In this document: positions 5,653 through 36,236 of the stretch, in pieces | Layout of the letters: each line of letters starts with the position of its first letter | Position numbering within the stretch: position 1 is the stretch's first letter | From: Blastocystis sp. subtype 4 | Taxonomy: Eukaryota | Direction of reading: 5' to 3' | Assembly (NCBI RefSeq): GCF_000743755.1 | Contig: NW_014569478.1 | Coordinates: forward strand, 1 to 39,364 | Length of the DNA stretch: 39,364 nt | Made by a program: the position numbers and the translations under genes | Notes under the pieces: generated by a model | Told to the model about the DNA's origin: nothing | What the model saw: the letters and a program-made list of their open reading frames with translations, nothing else | The model's database searches: none

Positions 5653-5930
5653 TATCTCTTCTATCACGATTGCCACTTCGATTTTTGCTTCTAGATGATT
5701 AAACAGACAAGGAAACTGCAATACCCCGAGTTTCTATCTGTAGATAACGATCTGCTTCGGGATCCACTATCTAGATTTCACTAAATGGAATCTGAGCTAT
5801 ACATGACGATGAACGACTTCTTGAGTGAGATATGGCCATCGAATCAAACGAATAGCACACAATAGGAATTCGAAACTCCGCCAAAACTGTTGAAGAACCG
5901 TGGAATGACTCCTTTGGTTTTCAGAAGAAG

Positions 5931-8122
5931 ATGGAACAGTATTTGAATCCCCAAAACATCGAAGATTACAACAAGAAGGAGTTCTGGGAAGATGCATTTC
6001 AGAAATACAAAGCCAATTATGATTGGTATGGCAAATATGATGATTTCCAAACGTACTTTGCACAGTACATCAAGAAGTCAGACAGAATTCTAATGGTTGG
6101 ATGTGGTAATAGTACACTCGGCGAAAAACTGTTGGAATCACAAATATGTATTATAGTTAGATATGACCATGGCTATCATAATGTTTTGTGTGTTGATTAC
6201 AGTGAGTCAGTCATTGCAACGATGAACAAAAGAAAGGGAGGAAGAAAGACGTTGATTTATCAAGTCATGGATGCAACTAACATGACGTTTGCTGATGAGG
6301 AGTTTGATGTGGTTATTGATAAGGTAGATAGTCTCTGAAAGACTCTTATATTAGGCATGCTTAGATGCTATTTATGCAGAAGATAATGAAAAATGCAAAT
6401 CGGATGCCACTCAATACCTGAAAGAGACAATTCGCGTTCTTCGTCCTAGTGGTTATCTTATCACAGTATCCATGTCTCAGGATTTCATTTGTCGTCTTTT
6501 CCATAGTATTCATTAGAGTAGTGTAATAATCGCACAGCTGTTTTTCATTCGTTTTCCACTGACGTTTATCTCCTTCCTCAGCCTGTAAATACTCTTCTAA
6601 CCAACCCTCTCTTCCTCTATGTGACTGCCAAAGCGGAGACAAAGAAACATTTCTGTTTCCATTTCGGTACTACGGATGGTTTTCTGTTGGGATTCGTGTT
6701 AAGACTGACTTCTAGACGTGATACATCGGATTTCACTTCTGGACAAATTCCTGATGTCTCGTCTCCAGATGCATTTGCTTCGGTGATGACAGAAACGAGA
6801 CACTATTTCTTAGGACGAAATGCTTTAAGAACTATTGCTGTCTCTTCATCTTCAAGTGTTCTTTCCATGACTCTCTCCTTGGGTACTGATAGTGAACACA
6901 TGGTAAAAATCGAAGGATATTTTGACATCCAGAATAAGTACCGTTTTGATATCTGGGATCATCCGTGTTCAAACAAGCAACAGCCAGTTACGTGTGCTCT
7001 TGTTGTTCCTGTTGGCAATGAACAGTCCCTGACCTTCACTACAGCAGTAAGCATTCATCAGTTGTTGGAGAGTATTCCAAGTGATCGAATGATTGTAATA
7101 ACACGTATGAATGGAATGAAGAATCGATCGATCTCTGATGAGGAAGTGAAGAAAGATTGTTCTTCAATTCTATCGTGTATGGTTCCAGTCAATGGTAAAC
7201 CCACAATTACAATATATTCACCTCCAGCAGAAGTTTCACAAGCGTAACATTGAAATGTGATTCTTCCTATTAGTTGCGAGATTGCTTCTGGAACTACAGC
7301 CTGTGGTGATGGATATGTCATTCAAGATGTGAAGAGTGAAGAAAGACGAGGTACACGACAGTTGGTATTTACAAGCAATTTGCGTGCTGTTCAATCAGAG
7401 ATAGGTTACCATATAGTCGGAACAAAGAAAAGGAAGAAGATTTTTGAATTTGAGTATGAAATGAGACTTGTTTATATTGTAGTTCCTTATTCTTCTCAAT
7501 TCATCAGTTAATGGCAACAGCACTTCTTCATTGTCCTCCTTTGACTCCTTCTCCTTCATTGTTGGTACTTGGATTAGGAGGTGGATGTCTTCCTTCATTC
7601 CTTCATACTCAGTTGCCTGAAGCTTCTATTACAGCTGTTGATATCGACAATACAATTATTGATATTGCTCATCAATACTTTAAATTAGACACTCACATCA
7701 AGACAATTGCATGTGATGGAGTGAAATATGTGAAAGATCTCGAAATGAAGAATGAGACTGTTGACTATCTGTTTGTAGATATTGATAGTAAGGATACACA
7801 TGGAAATGTCTCATTTCCTCCAATGGATTTCTTGACGGTCTAAATGAAAGATTGAAATGAGTTATAGAAAGCGTTCTTACAGAGTGTTAAGCATGTGGTA
7901 GGAGAGGAAGGAGTTGTGGTATATAATGTTTGCACACGTTCATTATCAATGTATGCTGTGTTCAAGAAACAGTTTGAAGGAGTCTTTAAGCATGTGTATA
8001 TGGAGGAATCAAAGGATGTGAATCGTGTTTTGATTGCTTCAAATCGACCCATTTTGGAAGGAGAGGCAATGGAGCAAGGACGTAAGGAATGGACGAAGAA
8101 CTATATGAAAAGTTCGAAATAG
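5931..8122 (+). CDS. METTL13: eEF1A lysine and N-terminal dual methyltransferase (METTL13-like), multi-exon
   Basis: N-terminal MTase: EFWEDAF, YDWYG, ILMVGCGNS, VMDATNMTF, FDVVIDK. C-terminal spermidine-synthase-like MTase: LLVLGLGGGCLPSFL, AVDID, LFVDIDSKD. Linker contains RQLVFTSNLRAVQSE. Confidence 0.9.
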
Positions 8123-8155: not shown

Positions 8156-11023
8156 ATGAGTTATACTGTAGAAGTAATAATTGAATGAATAGCTGACAGA
8201 ATAGCTAACTTCGAGAGGTGATTGTGTTAAGGTATCAACTCTTGGAGGAAAGGGATACAACCTCCTTGTTTTGGCTCAAGGAGGTTTTATAGTTCCTAGT
8301 GCATTCATTGTAATACAAGATGCATTTTGGGAGTTCCGACAAGAACTCGGATTTGACTTCTCTACACAGCAGGATTTGCCTATTTCAGATGATACAATTG
8401 ACTATATCCGTAATCTTGTGGACAACCATGAGTTGAAAGAAGAGTTGGTAGCCGAAATCAATACCCGATTGCATGACTTACGGAATCAGAGTCCAATTGC
8501 ACACCCTCTATTGGCTGTACGATCAAGTGGCGTTGCTGAAGATCTGGATAATGCTAGTTTTGCTGGAATGAATGAAACTGTATTGAATGTAGAATGTGAC
8601 TGTTCCTCAGTATGTCATGCTGTCAAAGAGTGTTGGAAATCCTTATTTACGCGTCGTTCAATCGAGTATCGTGTCAAAAATGGCTTTCCTGCTTTCGATA
8701 CATCAATTGCTGTAATTGTCCAAGTAATGATTCCTTCTGAAGTGGCAGGTGTTGTTTTTACTGTTGATCCACATACAAGTTCACGCGCTCATTTGGCACT
8801 GGATGGAGTACAAGGAATTGGTGAAGCTCTTGTGAGTGGAATGGTGGTTTCGGATCATTGGACTATTCGAAAGCCCTACGGCGATTATGATTTCTTTGTG
8901 GAGGAGGCCATTATCAATCAACAGGAATTCAAATTGCAGTCAAACTATCCCAAAGAAGGTACTTCGAAGATTATCCTTTCAGAAGAAGAGGGAGGCAAGC
9001 CTAGCTTTACTCCAGATCAAGTAAGCATTGATATTGTAATTCATTTGAAGATTGATCACATTGTGAGGAGTGCGATAGAGATTGAGAAGTATTACCAAAA
9101 ACCTATGGACATTGAGTTTTCCATTTATTGTAATGAATTGTATATCCTTCAGGCTCGTCCAATAACTCATCTTCTGACTATTCCTAATTGTAGGTTTCTT
9201 TAGTTTGACTCATAGTTAGGTATTAACCCACTGATTCACCCCTATAATAATGAATGGTCTGTGTTTCTAAATATGGGTTATTTCCAAATGTTGACAGATC
9301 CTATTTCTCCCGCTGGATATTCGTATATCAAATATCTCACTGGAGTGAGTGAACGATATCTGATTCATGTAAATGGATATGTCTTTATCAATGTTGCTAC
9401 TATCTTACAGTCAAAGTGTGTTCGTAAACTCCTTTTCCGTTATTTCGCTCTTTGAAGTTTAATACATAGGATTTTGGCGAACTGGGATCGAAGAAGAAGT
9501 AGTGAACATATTTGAGGAAATCTACAAGAATGATTACAAGAAATTTGACCATATTGTCTCAAAGAAAGGGAAAAAGAGTATTTATCAGCAGGTACTCTAT
9601 CCTCTGTTGAAATCACATATAAAACTAAAGTTTGAGAAACCGTCTGCAGAAATAGTTAGAGATCGTCTCCAAAAGAGTTTTGATGCTTTAATTTCTGTGG
9701 CCGACTCTATGCAGACAGTTCTCGATCAGGATCCTGCAAACGTGAAGCTAATTCATATTCTTTGTGTTCCTTTTGATCCTTTGCATTTTCTCATGGATTA
9801 CAAACCATTGCTGAATTATTGTCTGTCAGCAGTTCAAACTATCAAACGACTTCTCAAAAAGGCAGGAATTGATGAAGTAGAAGCAGAACGATTGTGGTCC
9901 AATCCAAAAGAGAATCTTGTGAAACAGCAGAATGATCTTCTGATTGCTATAGGTCAGAGTCTCTTACAACTTCCATCTCATGAAACCCTTCAAGTAGGAT
10001 TAGTCTGAGTGCATTTATTCATAGAAGTCAGTCGAAGCAAATGATCAACAATCCGTCCAGCTGTGGCTTCAGACCACTCTCTCAGCAACTGACTCCATCT
10101 CCCAAACATTTCAGAGAGTCTGGCATGAATTCATGAAAGCCTTTGGTTGTCGATGCCATGGTGAGATTGATCTGAGTTCACCTCGTTGGGAAGAGACTCC
10201 AATCGAAGTATTACGGATGGCATTCCAACTGGCTAACGAACCAATTGTGACTGAAGAGACCAGTATTGAGCAGCGGACAACAGCATGGGAGACGATGCGA
10301 GTAAAGTTGTCACCAAGGACGAGACGAAAGATTGAACACATGTTACCTGTGGCTACGATTTATCTCAGTTATCGGGAACACCATAAATATGGACTAATTC
10401 GTATCTTCAATGTGATTCATCATGTATTGAAACGAATGGGAGAGAAATTGGAATCCCTGGATTTGATCGATCATTCTAATGATGTGTTCTGTCTTCAATT
10501 GGAAGACTTGTTGTGGTGGGAAGAGGGTCGAAGTGATGGGAAAGATTTCAGAGATATGGTGCAGGTTAGTCGAGCAGCTCAAGAACGGATATCATTGGAT
10601 GAATTACCTCGTCTGATTGTTGGTCCTGAGTGTAAGATGTGTTTGTTGTCTCGCCAAACGCGAGAGAGTTTGAAGAACTTACCTCCTACAATGATGAGAG
10701 GAATGCCTACATCGCCTGGAGTGGTTGAGGGAGTGGCTGTAGTGGCAACGGATCCAGCCACAACTGTTGTTCGACGGGGTGATATCTTGATAGCCAGAGC
10801 GACCGATCCTGGTTGGACACCGTTGTTCGTGCCTGCAGGAGGAGTGGCCATTGAGATTGGATGTCCTTTGAATCATGGGAGTGTTGTGGCGAAGGAACTA
10901 GGGATCCCATGTGTAGTAGGGATAGTGGGATTGATGAAGAAGGTGAAAAGTGGAATGAGGATACGTATTGATGGAAATCGAGGAATAATTGAAATCCTTA
11001 GTGAAAATATAGCTGTGACTTAA
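8156..11023 (+). CDS. Rifamycin phosphotransferase (RPH)-like PEP-synthase/PPDK-family kinase, about 904 aa, 5 introns
   Basis: ATP-grasp motifs GGKG, AVRSSGVAED..ASFAG, AVIVQVMI, GIGEALVSG, DIEF..YILQARPIT. Central domain FQMLTDPISP, FGCRCHGEIDLSSPRWEE, YREHHKY. C-terminal His-swivel TDPGWTPLF..EIGCPLNHGSVVAKELGIP. Removing introns 8174-8204, 9021-9050, 9190-9219, 9439-9469 and 9994-10024 gives one continuous frame. Confidence 0.88.
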
Positions 11024-11089
11024 TTGATGTTTGTGTAAATCTATGTGGATGACTTGATCGATTCAAGGTAGAAGGGAGTGACATAAGTA

Positions 11090-18243: not shown

Positions 18244-18303
18244 ACGGTCATTGTTTGTTTCTATTCTTCCTTCTTAAGGAACATGGCGTTTTATCAAGAG
18301 GAA

Positions 18304-18376
18304 GCCTTTTTAGCTCAGTTGGTAGAGCACCCGCCTTGTAAGCGGAAGGTCCGGGGTTCGATTCCCCGAGGGGGCA
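18304..18376 (+). tRNA. tRNA-Thr(TGT)
   Basis: GCCTTTT TA GCTC AGTTGGTA GAGC A CCCGC CTTGTAA GCGGA AGGTC CGGGG TTCGATT CCCCG AGGGGGC A, followed by T-runs. Confidence 0.93.
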
Positions 18377-18396
18377 ATTCCTTTTTATTTTTCACT

Positions 18397-19671
18397 ATGG
18401 AGTACAAAACTAACACGTATGAAGCCTTAACCAGACACATGTATGTCAGTTGGGCTCTTGTTTTAGATGTATGTTTCACTGAACAAGAAGTCATTGCTGC
18501 CTTGAAGCATGTTCATGCAAAACACCCTCATTTGCGCTGTCGTATTCATGAGGGAACTCATCCAGGGGATATGAGTCTTTTAGAGAAGGAAGTTGGTGGT
18601 CCTGTCGTTTCTGTGCTTCCTGCATGTGTTCAGAACGTGGATGAGTTTCTGGAAAATTGTGTTGAATGGTTTTCAAATGATAGAAACGTTGATGATACAG
18701 TTCACTATTGGCTACTACTTGACAGTGAACAGAATCAATGTGTACTAGTTGCCTGCTTTTGCCATTCGTGTGTCGATGCACTCTCAAGTCTGCGTGTGGC
18801 CACAGATTTCCTATTGTATCTCGATTCTCCTTCGCTTTCAATTCCAAATTCTCGTCCCTTTGTTTCCGTTCAGAATGAAATCGTTTTGAAGAATCCAGAT
18901 GGTAATAATACTCCATATAAGAACCAAACAGAGGTGGTGTGGATAGCTCCGATTCGTCTACACGATGATGGTGACGTTTCTGGTCTTTTTAGAACGAAAC
19001 AAATTGTGTTGCCTCCAGAGACCATTGATGCCATTGTGAAGATGTGCCGTGATCATGGATGTACGTATCAGAGTTATCTTTGGCTATGCATTTTAATTAC
19101 CCAGATGAGGCTGTTCCAACGATCGTTTCCTCTCTCTGTGCGGTTTAACACACCTGTAACTACCATAGGCAGAGCCACTTTTGCCCATCCAATCTCCTCG
19201 GAAGATCTCGTCGTTGGGGCCTATTCTTGTTTCGTCCAGACTCATCTAGAAGGTGAACAGTCGTTCTGGGATGTTTGCCGGAGACTGACTGCAGCATTAA
19301 AACAGGAGATTGAGAGTGGAGACCAGATGAATGACTTCTTTTCTGTTTGCCAAACACTTGACTTTGGTAAACTCCCCTCAGCTTCATTCAATGGTTGTAC
19401 GCTTGGTGTAACGGATCTTAAACACCAGTATTCACATTTCTCTCTTAAGAATATCTATTTCCTTCCTGCTACTTCAAGATCTCCAGGGATGGGAGGTATG
19501 AATGTGCATGCATTCACTGTTGCTGGACTTGGCTGTTTCGTAAATTGTACCTATTGGTATCCTGGTTTCACCTCCCATGAGATGGCAGAGTACACACAGG
19601 ACTTGCAACAAATATTCAAGAGAGTATGTGAAGGAGATTGTACTTTACAACAAGTTCTCGATCATTCATAA
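18397..19671 (+). CDS. CoA-dependent acyltransferase / condensation-domain superfamily protein (alcohol acetyltransferase or PapA5-like), intronless
   Basis: KHPHLRCRI, HxxxD motif CHSCVDALS, IVKMCRDHGCT, FWDVCRRL. The true start is ATG 18397, downstream of the tRNA. TGTTTGTT at 19678-19685. Confidence 0.75.
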   Translation: MEYKTNTYEALTRHMYVSWALVLDVCFTEQEVIAALKHVHAKHPHLRCRIHEGTHPGDMSLLEKEVGGPVVSVLPACVQNVDEFLENCVEWFSNDRNVDDTVHYWLLLDSEQNQCVLVACFCHSCVDALSSLRVATDFLLYLDSPSLSIPNSRPFVSVQNEIVLKNPDGNNTPYKNQTEVVWIAPIRLHDDGDVSGLFRTKQIVLPPETIDAIVKMCRDHGCTYQSYLWLCILITQMRLFQRSFPLSVRFNTPVTTIGRATFAHPISSEDLVVGAYSCFVQTHLEGEQSFWDVCRRLTAALKQEIESGDQMNDFFSVCQTLDFGKLPSASFNGCTLGVTDLKHQYSHFSLKNIYFLPATSRSPGMGGMNVHAFTVAGLGCFVNCTYWYPGFTSHEMAEYTQDLQQIFKRVCEGDCTLQQVLDHS

Positions 19672-31466: not shown

Positions 31467-34400
31467 ATGACAGAAAGGGACCAGGACTCTCTTATTGAAG
31501 AAATCTACAGTGTCATTGACAATCTGGACTATGAACAGAGGAATTCGTCAATGATAAGTGGTTCTTGTGACTTTATTTTGAAACATATCGATCTGTTAGT
31601 CGATAATAGCAAATATGAGATTCTTGGTTCTGCAAACTTGTACGCAACGTAGTTTGGTTTCATTAACCATTTAGAAATGTCACAAAGATGAGCGAGAAAG
31701 AAATCACAAAGAGAGTTAAGGAATCGGTCGTTCGTTTCCATTGTGTGAATCGGCTTATTGATGTTTGTAATTCTCATTTGGATTTAATTATAGATATTCC
31801 TTTCACATATTCATCGAGAGCAGGAAGACTCTATGTTGATTCGACACTTGAAAGCGGTATTGTCGACTCTATTTCAACAAAATTACATTCAAAGTGCTTT
31901 AGATACAATCTGTGATCAAGGATCGAAGTTTAAAGACTTGAAGGCAGAACATCGTGTTCTAGCTATGCAAATACTTCAAGAATCTGCCTATTCGTTAGTA
32001 TCTGCATTTACTCTTGCTCGGGTTCGAATATAAAGGAGACTTGATGCATAGAGTAAGGAATCCGTCCTGTTTGCTGTTTCAGATACTGTGAAACGGTTGC
32101 AGTCTGCAGATGGTATCTCTCTCTTACCAATTATCAGTATTCTCTACTGTTCGATCCTTCGTGTGTTATTGTTTCCCAGTTCATTCAATACAGATATTGA
32201 GGTGATTCATACTCCTTTCTTTTCTGAGAGCGAATTGGAACAGATGACCACCAAAGCACAGAATCAAAACGATAAGTTCTTCCTTTTTGCAGTGGGTGTG
32301 AGTAGTTTGTCAATGAACAGTCCACAACACGGTGATCACAGCCATGTGTTTGCAGATGCTGTATATGACGTACTGTTGTCTACACACTGTTACTTCTAGT
32401 GTCTCTTCACACAACAGCTCTCGCAAATTGGCGTCTTCTCTGCATCCCTCACCTATCTCACTCTCTCTCCTATTTCCCAACAGCACTGTCAGCAGACACT
32501 TTGGACCCTTCTTCAAGCTTTCATCACATCGTACCTCTTCCATCGCTTTCCTTTCTATTCCCAGAGACAGATCCAGGAACGGAGTGAGCAGCAAGGACGA
32601 GCCATTGCTACCGAACAGCTTCCAGATGGCTATGAATCACTTTGTAAGACGCTTTCAACTGTTATAGGATCGCTTAAAGTACCTCCTTCCTGCAATCCAT
32701 CCTCGCCTACGTTTAATTCTGTTCTACAACAGCTTCTCTCATTCTTATTGGATTGTCTTCATACGTTACCTCTGCTCTTTGACGATGTCCTTTCTCTGAT
32801 GGCTTCTCTTGCTCTCTCGTCCCATGATAACGCTGAAGGTGTATTCATTCTCCTTCGTGACTTCAATAGTCCTGAGGCCTCTTGGCAGGTGTTCGCCAAT
32901 GCTCTCCATCAAGCTGTTGTTACCTTCCGACAACTGAAGTCTGGTCAGAAGGTGTTGGATGAGGACTACTCCGGTCTTACAGCCGTACTCTTGTTGTATG
33001 CTGCTGTACTCACGAGCCCTATGGTACGTTCTGTTTTCCTCACTGACTCTTCCCTCGATCTCCTCGCATCCTGTTTGCAACTTCTTCCTTTGCCACTATC
33101 CCTGCGACTTACAGCTGCTGTGTGTTCAGTTCTAGCAGCTTGTTCTGAAGAGCGATCTTGTGCACAGACCGTGTGGCAACAGATGGATAGTGGATGTTGT
33201 GTGTATGCATCAAAACTACAAGGAGCGATCTGTGGCGTGATACTCCCTCAAGCAGGCCTCCAACTTGCTTTGGATCGTGAAGAATCCATTCAGAAAGCGT
33301 ATCCTCTCACAGGGTCATTTTTGAAGTTACTTCTGACACTGTTAAGACATATTGATCCGTATGTGTTACTAACCAGTCGAAGCTTATTCCCATATCTTTC
33401 GTTCTGTGTTCAAGATGTCTTTATCAAAGCAGCTACACGGGAATATACACAGGAAGAAGAGTTGTATGAGCTTCAGGGTCTGTGTGTGAGTGTGATAACC
33501 ACTTGTGTCAATTTTCTCCTTACGGATAATCCTGCTATGAAGGATACATGTATTCATGCTCTTGTTGTTGAACTCCTCTCTGGATCTCCTCTTACAAATG
33601 CTGTTCTCAATCTTCATCTCCTCACTCTCTCATCGTGGCCTCATTCCTATCCTCAGATCCCTCTTCTCTCTCCTCCAGGACAGTCATCTTGGCAGGCATA
33701 TACTATTCAGCTTGCTGCTGAACTCATTCGTACTCTTCTTTCCTTTACCTCTGCTCGTATTCAGTCCTTAGACCTTGTTCGAGCAGCTCCAGGACAACGT
33801 ATACTCGTCCAACCTCTGGCTCAACAATTATTAGCAAATCCAGTACCAACGGTGCGAATGCTATTACGACTGGGTGATGGATCTCACCCTTCATTACAAC
33901 AAACAACACTTCATATTCTATCTCAGATTGCTTCTCAAGTATCTTCAGCTACTTTAGTTTCGTTCTTTGGATCCAATCCTAATGAGGTTCGTCTCATGGT
34001 TGATGCTTGTGCGTTGATTCTCCGTGATGCCATGACACATGAGGATGACACTAATGATCAACCAGCTCTTACTTTGCTGGAGACCTTACTTATTCAAGCA
34101 TCCACCTCTTCACCTTCACTTACTTCGTTATTACTCTGTCTCCCAGCAGCCAATGAAGCAGTAGAACTGGTGAATGATGGTCTCTTGGATTCTATTTTCT
34201 CCTTATTGGCCTCTCCAAGCATGATTTTATGCCATACAGAGCTTGCTATGAAAGCAGTCCAATTACTTCATATTCTCTGCATTACTCCAAGTGAATGGAG
34301 TTCATGGATCCAGTCTATGTTGATAACACGTGAATCATGCGTTGTCTTGCTTTCCTTACTGCCATACTTCCTATCCTGTTACAATGCGAACTCTTTTGAT

Positions 34401-36236
34401 ACTCAAACAGGAACGGTTCTTCTTACTGAGGCTCATCGACAGGCCTTTCTTCATCTCCTTGCAGCTTCAGCTCGCCTAGTATCTGGTCTTCTATTTGTAT
34501 TCCATCGTGTTGGAGAGAACAAAGGGTTAACATTTCTATTGAAGGCAGTCACACAATATGATCAACGAGTTGAACGATACCTTCAAGTCCGATCTGATTC
34601 GGGTTCGCCTCTGTTGGATACTCTTGTACGGATTCCTCAATTGATGCAAGGCAAACCTTCGTTGTCTCCTTCACTGCAAGCTTGTTGTGTTGGTCTGGAG
34701 GAACATAGGATAATTCAAGGACAAGACGTTATTTGTGTGAAACGAAGTGAGATTGAAGAAGCAGCACGACGATACTGTGAAGAGCACGAGATAATGGATG
34801 TAGTGGAATTCACCCGACAGACTGTGAATGAATGTGATCAGGTGAGGAATAGATAGGATAATGATACGTAGTATAATGAGGCTGTATTGAAGCAAGCATG
34901 GGATATCGATATGTTTGGTGCTCTATTGACTGTACTTCAAGTTACAGTGGTAGATTGTTATGATTCTCTCTCTCTTCTTCCTCTCTACAAGGATGCTACT
35001 GACTCTTTCCTGTTAGCAGTCCTGCACTCGCTTCTTCAGATCCTTGTGGCACTACATTCTGATCAAGAGACACTCACTCAGCAGATTGGATGGGTAAGTA
35101 TTTCCATCATCACCACACTGCAGCAACATGGAGCTCAGCAGACTGATACTGGAAATCAAGGTGATCTTATGAAGTTGCTCACAGAAGCCATTCTTCGTGA
35201 GAATGTCCCTGGTAAAGCGGCAGCCACACGTCGGAAGACACTCTACATCATCATTCTCCGTCTAATCTGGTATTCATCTTCATTGCATCTGACCTCTAGT
35301 TATCTACAGAATAAGATGCATCTCAGTCACATTCTTGCTCCTGTCCAGGCATCAATGCCCTATCTAGTTGTGACATTGGCACATGATGTATCCAATCAGG
35401 ATCTCACTTGTCGATCTGCAGCTACACCTCTCCTTGCTCTTTTGATTCGGTCGGATAAGGCAGGCAGTATGATTCAATTGCTTCTTCAGCAAGGTGACCT
35501 CATACTAGCCCTCCTCTCTCTTCTTCAGTCTGTCGATTTGACCCTCTTTGAGGATTCAGCACAACAACAACGTCTGGCAGTACGGCAACTATTGAGTCTC
35601 CTTACCGACATCGCTACTTCTCAGGCGGGAGCTGTAGCTCTCCTTTCTATGTCTATCTTTGGTGCTCTTATCCACTGTCCTCTTCTTCTAGCCTTGCGAG
35701 ATCAGTTTCAGACTCTGGTTCCTGTTTCTCTTCCGCCTCAACACAAGGATATTCTGCGGTCGATTCTTCATCAGTTCCTTCAATTAGCACTGTGCCTTCA
35801 TCATGCAGTCGAATCTATTCGATCTGTACAAGCTGAATTGACTGCCTTTGTCCAAGCTCTAATTCCGTTGTCTTCGTTGTTCTTCAAGGACCGAGAAGGA
35901 GATCAAGAATTGGCAGTTGATACTCTTGGACTATATCTGGGAGTATTAGTATTGTTAGCTGAGAATCGTGAGCAGTTCAGTAAGGCAATGCAAGGATATG
36001 AGAGTATATTGAAGACTGAAGTCATTAGTCTTTTAAATTACGTTAGCAAGCAAGATAATTGTCAATTCATCTGTCAGCAGGTTACAAGTGGATCGAAGTT
36101 ATCTCGTGATTTATTGAAGAAATCAAAACAGGAAACACTCTATTTGATAGCTGTGGAGAATGGAATGTTGTTTATGAGTAAGATGGGGTGGAAGATTGGT
36201 GATGAATACATACGAGCATTTGGAGTGAAAGAGTGA
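31467..36236 (+). CDS. NUP205: Nucleoporin Nup205/Nup192-like alpha-solenoid, multi-exon
   Basis: Long Leu-rich helical ORFs. The segment LDREESIQKAYPLTGSFLKLL..FPYLSFCVQDVFIKAATREY..EELYEL resembles the conserved Nup205 block (E..YPLTRAF..PYLQFL..VF..RAY..EKW), recalled from memory. Confidence 0.7.

Follow-up and report, generated by a model that had tools for sequence, protein, structure and literature searches.

On the plus strand of a 39,364-nt stretch of the Blastocystis sp. subtype 4 genome (contig NW_014569478.1, positions 1 to 39,364; called here the window) we found a spliced gene of six exons that codes for a protein of 904 aa. We read this protein, with a probability of roughly two in three, as a small-molecule dikinase of the rifampin phosphotransferase (RPH) type, whose acceptor is likely to be something other than rifamycin.

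Gene structure, domain layout and catalytic residues

The gene extends from an ATG at 8156 to a TAA at 11023, an interval that before splicing contains four long plus-strand open frames. Removal of five introns, all GT..AG, 30 or 31 nt long and with 65–73% A+T (Table 1), gives a frame of 2715 nt without internal stop. An earlier note, made from the sequence alone, had proposed this gene model, and it was confirmed by the frame check and, for introns 2–5, by a spliced contig. According to the reading-frame check, retention of intron 1, 3, 4 or 5 would lead to a stop at aa 11, 329, 403 or 577, respectively; intron 2 keeps the frame and contains no stop, so that evidence from outside the sequence was needed for it. 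Such evidence was found in run X6, presumed to be of the RNA type, where a single contig of 2650 nt spans positions 8205–10947 with 0 mismatches, lacks exactly 9021–9050 and 9190–9219 and joins 9438^9470 and 9993^10025. Introns 2–5 are spliced out in this contig, the only one in which splicing was seen. In the DNA run X5 the introns are present and none of the spliced joints of introns 2–5 was found, and runs X19 and X20, with small coverage, crossed no junction in spliced form. The loose end of the X6 contig before 8205 consists of adapter-like sequence and the final 6 nt of exon 1. RNA support for intron 1 is thus a weak 6 nt, and of the five junctions of the proposed model four were recovered exactly. 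Introns of about 30 nt are described as typical of human-type Blastocystis isolates (PMC10690189).

Table 1. Exons, introns and 3' motifs of the gene (window coordinates; residue numbers of the window protein unless stated otherwise)
Feature	Position	Strand	Remarks
Exon 1	8156..8173	+	aa 1–6, ATG; BLAST to Blastoise proteins P0003 and P0006 begins at residue 1 of both; last 6 nt joined to 8205 in X6 contig
Intron 1	8174..8204	+	31 nt, phase 0; weak RNA support (6 nt)
Exon 2	8205..9020	+	ATP-grasp; K22 (8250–8252), R112, T131; Pfam PPDK_N E 3e-67; PDB 5fbs E 2e-39
Intron 2	9021..9050	+	30 nt, in frame, stop-free; absent from X6 contig, present in X5
Exon 3	9051..9189	+	end of ATP-grasp; E300 (RPH-Lm E297); QARP
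Intron 3	9190..9219	+	30 nt, phase 1; absent from X6 contig
Exon 4	9220..9438	+	N-part of putative acceptor pocket, F346, Q347, I361, I381; NF004878 E 2e-8, NF041857 E 1e-5
Intron 4	9439..9469	+	31 nt, phase 1; joint 9438^9470
Exon 5	9470..9993	+	helical middle of central domain, most diverged part; W400 (RPH-Lm L387), V548 (RPH-Lm T523)
Intron 5	9994..10024	+	31 nt, phase 0; joint 9993^10025
Exon 6	10025..11023	+	C-part of central domain, R689-E690-x-x-K693 (10373–10387); swivel, C852 (10862–10864), H856 (10874–10876); TAA; PF00391 E 2e-18; 5fbs E 8e-36
Perfect TGTTTGTT within coding sequence	10640..10647	+	just ahead of swivel domain; X6 contig reads through
Downstream polyadenylation-linked element	11028..11035	+	variant TGTTTGTG, 1 letter from consensus TGTTTGTT

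Regarding the domain order, PPDK_N was matched by the first long ORF and the PEP-utilizers swivel domain PF00391 by the last; the swivel ends within ~12 aa of the stop, and no C-terminal phosphoenolpyruvate (PEP)/pyruvate barrel was matched in Pfam or NCBIfam. For both ends of the protein the RPH of Listeria (RPH-Lm, PDB 5fbs) is the best PDB match. Exon 4 alone found RPH-Lm in PDB only at E 1.3, exon 5 alone had no family match in the Pfam and NCBIfam scans, and in the exon 5 region 17 of 161 positions are identical to RPH-Lm (Lm 396–565). For structure comparison, models of two relatives were used in place of the window protein itself. That of P0002 matches 5hv1 over its length (TM 0.76, E 1e-46, Z 29), and that of P0233, which belongs to the same lineage as the window protein, matches 5fbt with TM 0.70. 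The domain Rph_4th (PF27448) was found on relatives, and matches in the ESM Atlas were mostly bacterial Rph_4th clusters, which are uninformative on the eukaryotic range of the family. A hydropathy scan showed no evident transmembrane segment, the best window of 19 residues reaching 1.9. Domain scans, PDB matches and the models of the two relatives bear out the RPH-type architecture stated in the earlier note, as opposed to that of PEP synthase or PPDK; these share ATP-grasp and phospho-His swivel with the window protein but have a central swivel followed by the PEP/pyruvate barrel, which is absent here. The comparison with the Listeria structure proposed there likewise showed a match over the length of the relatives' models. 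The claim that this layout is specific to the RPH of Firmicutes and Actinobacteria is not supported, as the PigC, RedH and PRK06241 models also match both protein ends and Bacillus subtilis YvkC, an RPH structural homolog, is reported to phosphorylate flavonoids (PMC13099321).

Catalytic and drug-contact residues were taken from the description of RPH-Lm (PMC4844700). In the alignment the window protein shares nine of the ten catalytic or phosphate-network residues of RPH-Lm, namely K22 (K22 in RPH-Lm), R112 (R117), T131 (T136), E300 (E297) and Q347 (Q337), followed in the C-terminal part by R689 (R666), E690 (E667), K693 (K670) and H856 (H825). The exception is T523, which is Val (V548). The same nine residues are identical in 7 of 7 paralogs compared from Blastocystis sp. 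Blastoise. The RPH-like motifs quoted in the earlier note were all located (QMLTDP at aa 347, CRCHGEIDL at 614, YREHHKY at 688, LNHGSVV at 854), but as a mark of rifamycin specificity they do not serve, since phosphate-network residues are kept superfamily-wide while the drug contacts are changed. Phosphate-site motifs are reported to be kept by distant clades of the RPH superfamily as well (PMC4844700).

By its layout, ATP site, R-E-x-x-K motif and catalytic His the predicted protein belongs to the RPH-like dikinase superfamily, and activity as an ATP-driven dikinase is likely. Because nine of the ten catalytic or phosphate residues are kept, the enzyme likely works like RPH. By analogy with RPH-Lm (PMC4844700), the ATP-grasp domain would bind ATP with K22, R112, T131 and E300, and His856 of the swivel would accept the beta-phosphate under release of AMP and Pi. 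The swivel would then move to the central domain carrying the phosphate, which R689, E690, K693 and Q347 would hold and pass to a hydroxyl group on the acceptor bound there, so that phospho-acceptor, AMP and Pi would be the products.

The acceptor pocket and the likely substrates

The window protein is 27.1% identical to RPH-Lm over 914 columns (BLAST), compared with >42% for members of the validated RPH clade, clade A (PMC4844700). With the NCBIfam model for RPH, NF041857, it scores 176 + 24 + 0 + 151 bits by piece, ~350 summed, and 6 of 6 full-length relatives reach 378–455 bits, the cut-off being 999. Eleven rifampin contacts were scored (Q336, Y351, T354, P356, A357, M359, V368, L387, L478, F479 and M673); one alignment shows identity at 0 of the 9 contacts aligned, the other at 1 of 11. 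Other RPH-clade proteins keep 5–8 of the 11 in five of the six cases scored and 3 of 10 in the sixth. Q336, found in 18 of 19 RPH-clade rows, corresponds to Phe (F346), the aromatic Y351 (19 of 19) to Ile (I361) and T523 (19 of 19) to Val (V548); I381 and W400 take the places of V368 and L387. Going by these aligned residues the pocket would still be hydrophobic, but the RPH-typical residues are gone. By identity, NF041857 score, contacts and tree position (see below) the predicted protein is not an RPH proper, and the family assignment of the earlier note holds for the RPH-type superfamily only. RPH-Lm (PDB 5FBS/5FBT/5FBU and 5HV1-3) thus resembles the window protein in domain order, fold and nine residues, and differs from it in the drug contacts and in T523, whereas the window protein is eukaryotic, spliced and one of several copies.

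The top model for 6 of 6 full-length Blastocystis-type proteins, with 485–569 bits, is PRK06241.1-3 (NF004878), an uncharacterised group from Chloroflexota, Bacillota and others that is named 'phosphoenolpyruvate synthase'. An Ardenticatena cluster of this type is ~30% identical to the window protein. The scores are, however, far under the cut-off of 945 bits, and the Blastocystis proteins do not nest in this group. Blastocystis-type proteins moreover carry a short linker insertion ahead of the swivel that is absent from the prokaryotic rows shown.

A working rifamycin phosphotransferase, which would inactivate rifamycins in the gut, could be argued for because RPH-Lm is the nearest solved structure, the counterparts of its Q337, R666, E667, K670 and H825 are retained, the pocket appears hydrophobic, RPH tolerates pocket change and RPH-near models score best. 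Against it stand the low identity and score, the replaced contacts, the differences between the pockets of the paralogs themselves and the rejected placement in the RPH clade. Rifamycins target bacterial RNA polymerase, so no direct selection for such an activity is evident. A distant RPH homolog of C. difficile is reported to have given no resistance (PMC4844700), which also counts against this reading. We consider rifamycin phosphorylation unlikely overall, which holds for a measurable side activity, and scarcely conceivable as the main role. Of the two readings offered in the earlier note, the inactivation of rifamycins such as rifaximin appears unlikely as the role of the gene, and an undescribed small-molecule kinase is the better one.

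Among 7 Blastoise paralogs the identity is 69% in the ATP-grasp, 80% in the swivel, 34% in the pocket segment and 20% at the 11 pocket positions, compared with 59, 80, 57 and 50% among 7 RPH-clade proteins. Constant ATP-grasp and swivel domains together with changing pockets suggest that the paralogs may have different acceptors. The likeliest acceptors would be hydrophobic hydroxylated compounds of the gut, for example phenolics or flavonoids from the diet or metabolites of microbes, and their phosphorylation would serve detoxification or capture. Dietary phenolics are the leading guess because of the hydrophobic pocket and because most copies occur in herbivore isolates; plant phenolics specifically are proposed here tentatively, by analogy. 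Enzymes of the same fold are reported to act on phenolics (PMC12167813) and flavonoids (PMC13099321). YvkC, for which phosphorylation of many flavonoids is described (Hsu 2023, as cited in PMC13099321), is a precedent for a plant-phenolic acceptor and is likened to the window protein by description only. In HpeHI, CreHI and PpsAB, whose domains are homologous, a swivel His relays the beta-phosphate to the OH of a phenolic, and HpeI (9goj) matches the ATP-grasp of the window protein; in contrast, these systems consist of two proteins, are ~20% identical to RPH and act in catabolic pathways (PMC12167813). A wider proposal, which we regard as speculative and doubtful in its entirety, is that an RPH-type dikinase from an unusual prokaryote gave rise to a eukaryotic xenobiotic-phosphorylation family with a fixed engine and fast pockets, grown to as many as 13 copies in herbivorous hosts, that would phosphorylate dietary polyphenols or gut-microbial compounds and perhaps drugs.

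Several observations weigh against a dikinase with an acceptor other than rifamycin. The pocket map is a sequence alignment at 11–21% identity in a poorly conserved region, and some of the changes are conservative (V368I, M359L, M673L). The RPH pocket is described as mainly hydrophobic and Y351F as having little effect (PMC4844700), and one protein, P0083, passes the NCBIfam cut-off for RPH yet matches only 4 of 10 contacts. Among the NCBIfam models the best scores are those of PRK06241.1 and RPH, with PigC/RedH lower, which places the family on the RPH-near side. High ATP-grasp identity between paralogs could stem from gene conversion and low pocket identity from relaxed selection, and the link between the expansion in tortoise isolates and a plant diet concerns one lineage and does not count as independent evidence. 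At the glycine pair of the swivel loop, ahead of the catalytic His, the window protein has Gly-Cys, alone among 327 sequences, of which 315 have Gly-Gly and 11 Gly-Ser. The Cys codon is the same in contigs from 5 runs, and Gly-Cys is therefore a real allele.

This loop, unique in the 327 sequences, the Val in place of T523 and the perfect TGTTTGTT inside the coding sequence would fit a decaying or catalytically impaired copy. We consider this very unlikely, given the intact 904-aa frame, the spliced contig, the 9 catalytic residues kept, the 11 homologs with Gly-Ser at the same loop and the constancy of the allele in contigs of 5 runs. A condensing ligase of the PigC/RedH type (NF052631, NF052632), which phosphorylates a carbonyl and joins two molecules, has the same three-domain order, and both models match both protein ends. 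The full-length relatives reach only 291–335 bits against cut-offs of 1300–1350, below the RPH-near models, and no biosynthetic cluster, within which such condensing enzymes act, was found among 18 window ORFs scanned, which makes this reading highly improbable. Finally, the protein might replace the PPDK missing in Blastocystis and interconvert pyruvate and PEP: InterPro counts give 0 PPDK in all 8 Blastocystis isolates and 1–2 in Cafeteria and Proteromonas, and the ATP-grasp and swivel domains are in common. This is hardly credible, since the PEP/pyruvate barrel is absent, pyruvate kinase is retained, pyruvate is reported not to be an RPH substrate (PMC4844700) and pocket diversification would be unexpected for a core metabolic enzyme.

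A Blastocystis family and its origin

The window holds one copy only, and the single gene of the earlier note turned out to belong to a multigene, genus-wide family. At least 9 Blastoise homologs were found among the matches listed, and gut-type sequences fall in two lineages, one of which includes the window protein. Published InterPro domain counts, from which all copy numbers given here were taken rather than from trees, list 13, 4 and 7 swivel-domain genes in the tortoise isolates and 1–3 in ST1, ST3 and ST4, in line with the presence across subtypes that the earlier note had left to be checked; the PEP-binding barrel (IPR000121) and PPDK (IPR010121) are both 0 in all 8 Blastocystis isolates, and Cafeteria and Proteromonas have 1–2 swivel copies, matching their PPDK counts (PMC10690189, supplementary file 7). 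By these counts, loss of PPDK and gain of the RPH-type family map to the same branch. One Blastoise protein (P0009, WA158_000087) is annotated with an N-terminal extension containing PF02037, likely a gene-model fusion. A scan of metagenomes that covered 8 of 64 parts gave, in the best 80 of 577 loci, matches of 28–42% and no close relative; these loci were left out of the further analysis.

Trees were calculated from hand-picked sets of 58, 65, 32, 20 and 18 rows of ~320 sequences, and approximately unbiased (AU) tests were run on the 20 and 18 rows with LG+G4, the 18-row set being without the Patescibacteria-containing group. The Blastocystis sequences form a fully supported clade (100/100 in the tree under the mixture model) that is nested among prokaryotic rows and in every tree lies outside the RPH clade. 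Under the mixture model its sister group (100/97) consists of three sequences, one of them named Patescibacteria; both stems are long, and this position may be due to long-branch attraction. Joining the Blastocystis clade to the RPH clade was rejected with p-AU 0.0017 (20 rows) and 0.021 (18 rows). Joining it to RPH-near Bacillota gave p-AU 0.0066 with the Patescibacteria-containing sister and 0.158 without, and joining it to the Chloroflexota-type group 0.0035 and 0.055, respectively. A Chloroflexota donor had been considered from BLAST ranks, the group being named after hit lists, and was not supported by the trees. The best prokaryotic matches are ~30% identical; for the whole protein they are of the Chloroflexota type (Ardenticatena, Anaerolineaceae), with thermophilic Bacillota also among the top. 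An RPH-like gene was also noticed in Thermoplasmata archaeon SIG4 (an archaeal metagenome-assembled genome, L040 4001 region), second of 72 named-genome proteins scored; its protein does not group with the window protein in the trees.

The window protein is 34–36% identical to proteins of tortoise isolates (BLAST), near the average identity of 40–42% given for the tortoise and human-type groups (PMC10690189), so that the gene should be older than the divergence of tortoise and mammal isolates. We hold an old transfer from a prokaryote to Blastocystis to be probable. One such transfer from a prokaryotic lineage to the Blastocystis stem would have been followed by intron gain, then by a split into two lineages among gut-type sequences; in tortoise isolates the family would have expanded separately, its pockets changing fast. 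Of the lateral transfer put forward in the earlier note the prokaryotic source stands as probable, in view of the nested position of the clade. The donor named there, a gut bacterium of the Firmicutes or Actinobacteria with an rph-type gene, is improbable, although the central-domain profile puts Bacillota (Paenibacillaceae, Vulcanibacillus, Clostridium) among the best prokaryotic rows and a clade with RPH-near Bacillota is not rejected once the Patescibacteria-containing group is left out. It is rejected when this group is present, neither test allows a place in the RPH clade proper, the best whole-protein matches lie elsewhere, and the family predates the tortoise/mammal split. The expected nesting within bacterial RPH-like clades was accordingly found among prokaryotic rows but not within the RPH clade.

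A point against transfer is that no tree contained a eukaryotic homolog from outside Blastocystis. The family might instead be an older eukaryotic one, either inherited and lost in relatives or obtained from another eukaryote. The long stem (1.2 changes per site), the lack of a close prokaryotic sister and the ~30% identity of even the best prokaryotic matches speak for it. Animals, invertebrates among them, carry proteins annotated as PEP-synthase- or RPH-like, which are absent from our trees. Some mites are reported to have lost a 'phosphoenolpyruvate synthase' (PMC9113151). On the other hand, the InterPro counts leave no copy beyond PPDK in Proteromonas or Cafeteria, and a Patescibacteria protein belongs to the sister group supported at 100/97. 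No named eukaryote other than Blastocystis was found among the matches listed (120 of 408, 120 of 4252 and 6 of 6, many rows being without names), and a word search with the central domain only gave 6 matches among 4951 candidates. We therefore regard an older eukaryotic family as rather unlikely and prefer an old transfer from a prokaryote.

Genomic setting and significance

The element TGTTTGTG downstream of the gene sits exactly 5 bases past the last stop base, the stop-to-motif spacing described together with the polyadenylation-linked motif TGTTTGTT of Blastocystis (PMC5608401). The window contains 21 perfect copies of TGTTTGTT, where 2.5 would be expected. If the copy inside the coding sequence was used, a stop-less transcript without the catalytic His would result. 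The Pfam scan of the window ORFs shows eukaryotic neighbours (14-3-3, ERCC4, a protein kinase and GT49). G+C content and GC3 of the gene are 0.41 and 0.35, compared with 0.41–0.44 and 0.33–0.38 in 5 neighbouring ORFs and a window G+C content of ~40%. The best named matches to the protein, among the matches listed, are all from Blastocystis sp. Blastoise, and DNA of the window was detected in mouse and rat gut metagenomes; a rodent-type subtype is a conjecture. The gene is integrated in the host genome and bacterial contamination is excluded; the naturalisation proposed in the earlier note agrees with the introns, the host 3' motif (one letter off consensus), the host-like G+C content and the eukaryotic neighbours. 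Runs X7, X11, X15 and X17 are near-identical with 1 difference listed and gave no diverged allele for a selection test.

The gene upstream, at 5856–8122, codes for a methyltransferase at the N-terminus and a spermine-synthase-like methyltransferase at the C-terminus, and we take it to resemble eEF1A-KNMT/METTL13. Its stop is separated by 33 nt from the ATG at 8156, and its own 3' motif (8125) lies inside this gap. An uninterrupted frame of 475 aa at 18244–19671 has a weak match to alcohol acetyltransferase (PF07247, E 0.0066, below cut-off) and is possibly another small-molecule-modifying enzyme. Two further uninterrupted plus-strand frames, at 32400–34856 (818 aa) and 34872–36236 (454 aa), have no Pfam match, lie in a T-rich stretch and may run antisense to real genes.

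Transfers of bacterial genes into Blastocystis are well known. In the literature searched, no account of an RPH-like gene was found for Blastocystis or for any other eukaryote; 'rifam' is absent from the main text of PMC10690189 and PMC5608401, and the family is not named in tables S6 and S7 of the Lind study on transfers, in which 67 of 74 events of Eme et al. 2017 were re-identified. For the window protein the ratio of the best prokaryotic match is 368/1876 = 0.196, obtained with a database and program different from those of the Lind study, whose alien-index threshold is 0.2; the family was plausibly missed there because its alien index is just under this value. It is apparently an undescribed Blastocystis subfamily of RPH-type dikinases.

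Spread over the genus, spliced and expanded into paralogs, these RPH-type kinases make a concrete candidate that can be tested, and the family offers natural pocket variants for a superfamily with few acceptors known. On present evidence the gene should not be annotated as rifamycin resistance. If the proposed role is true, the commonest eukaryote of the human gut would act on compounds from the diet with a chemistry that until now has been described in bacteria alone.

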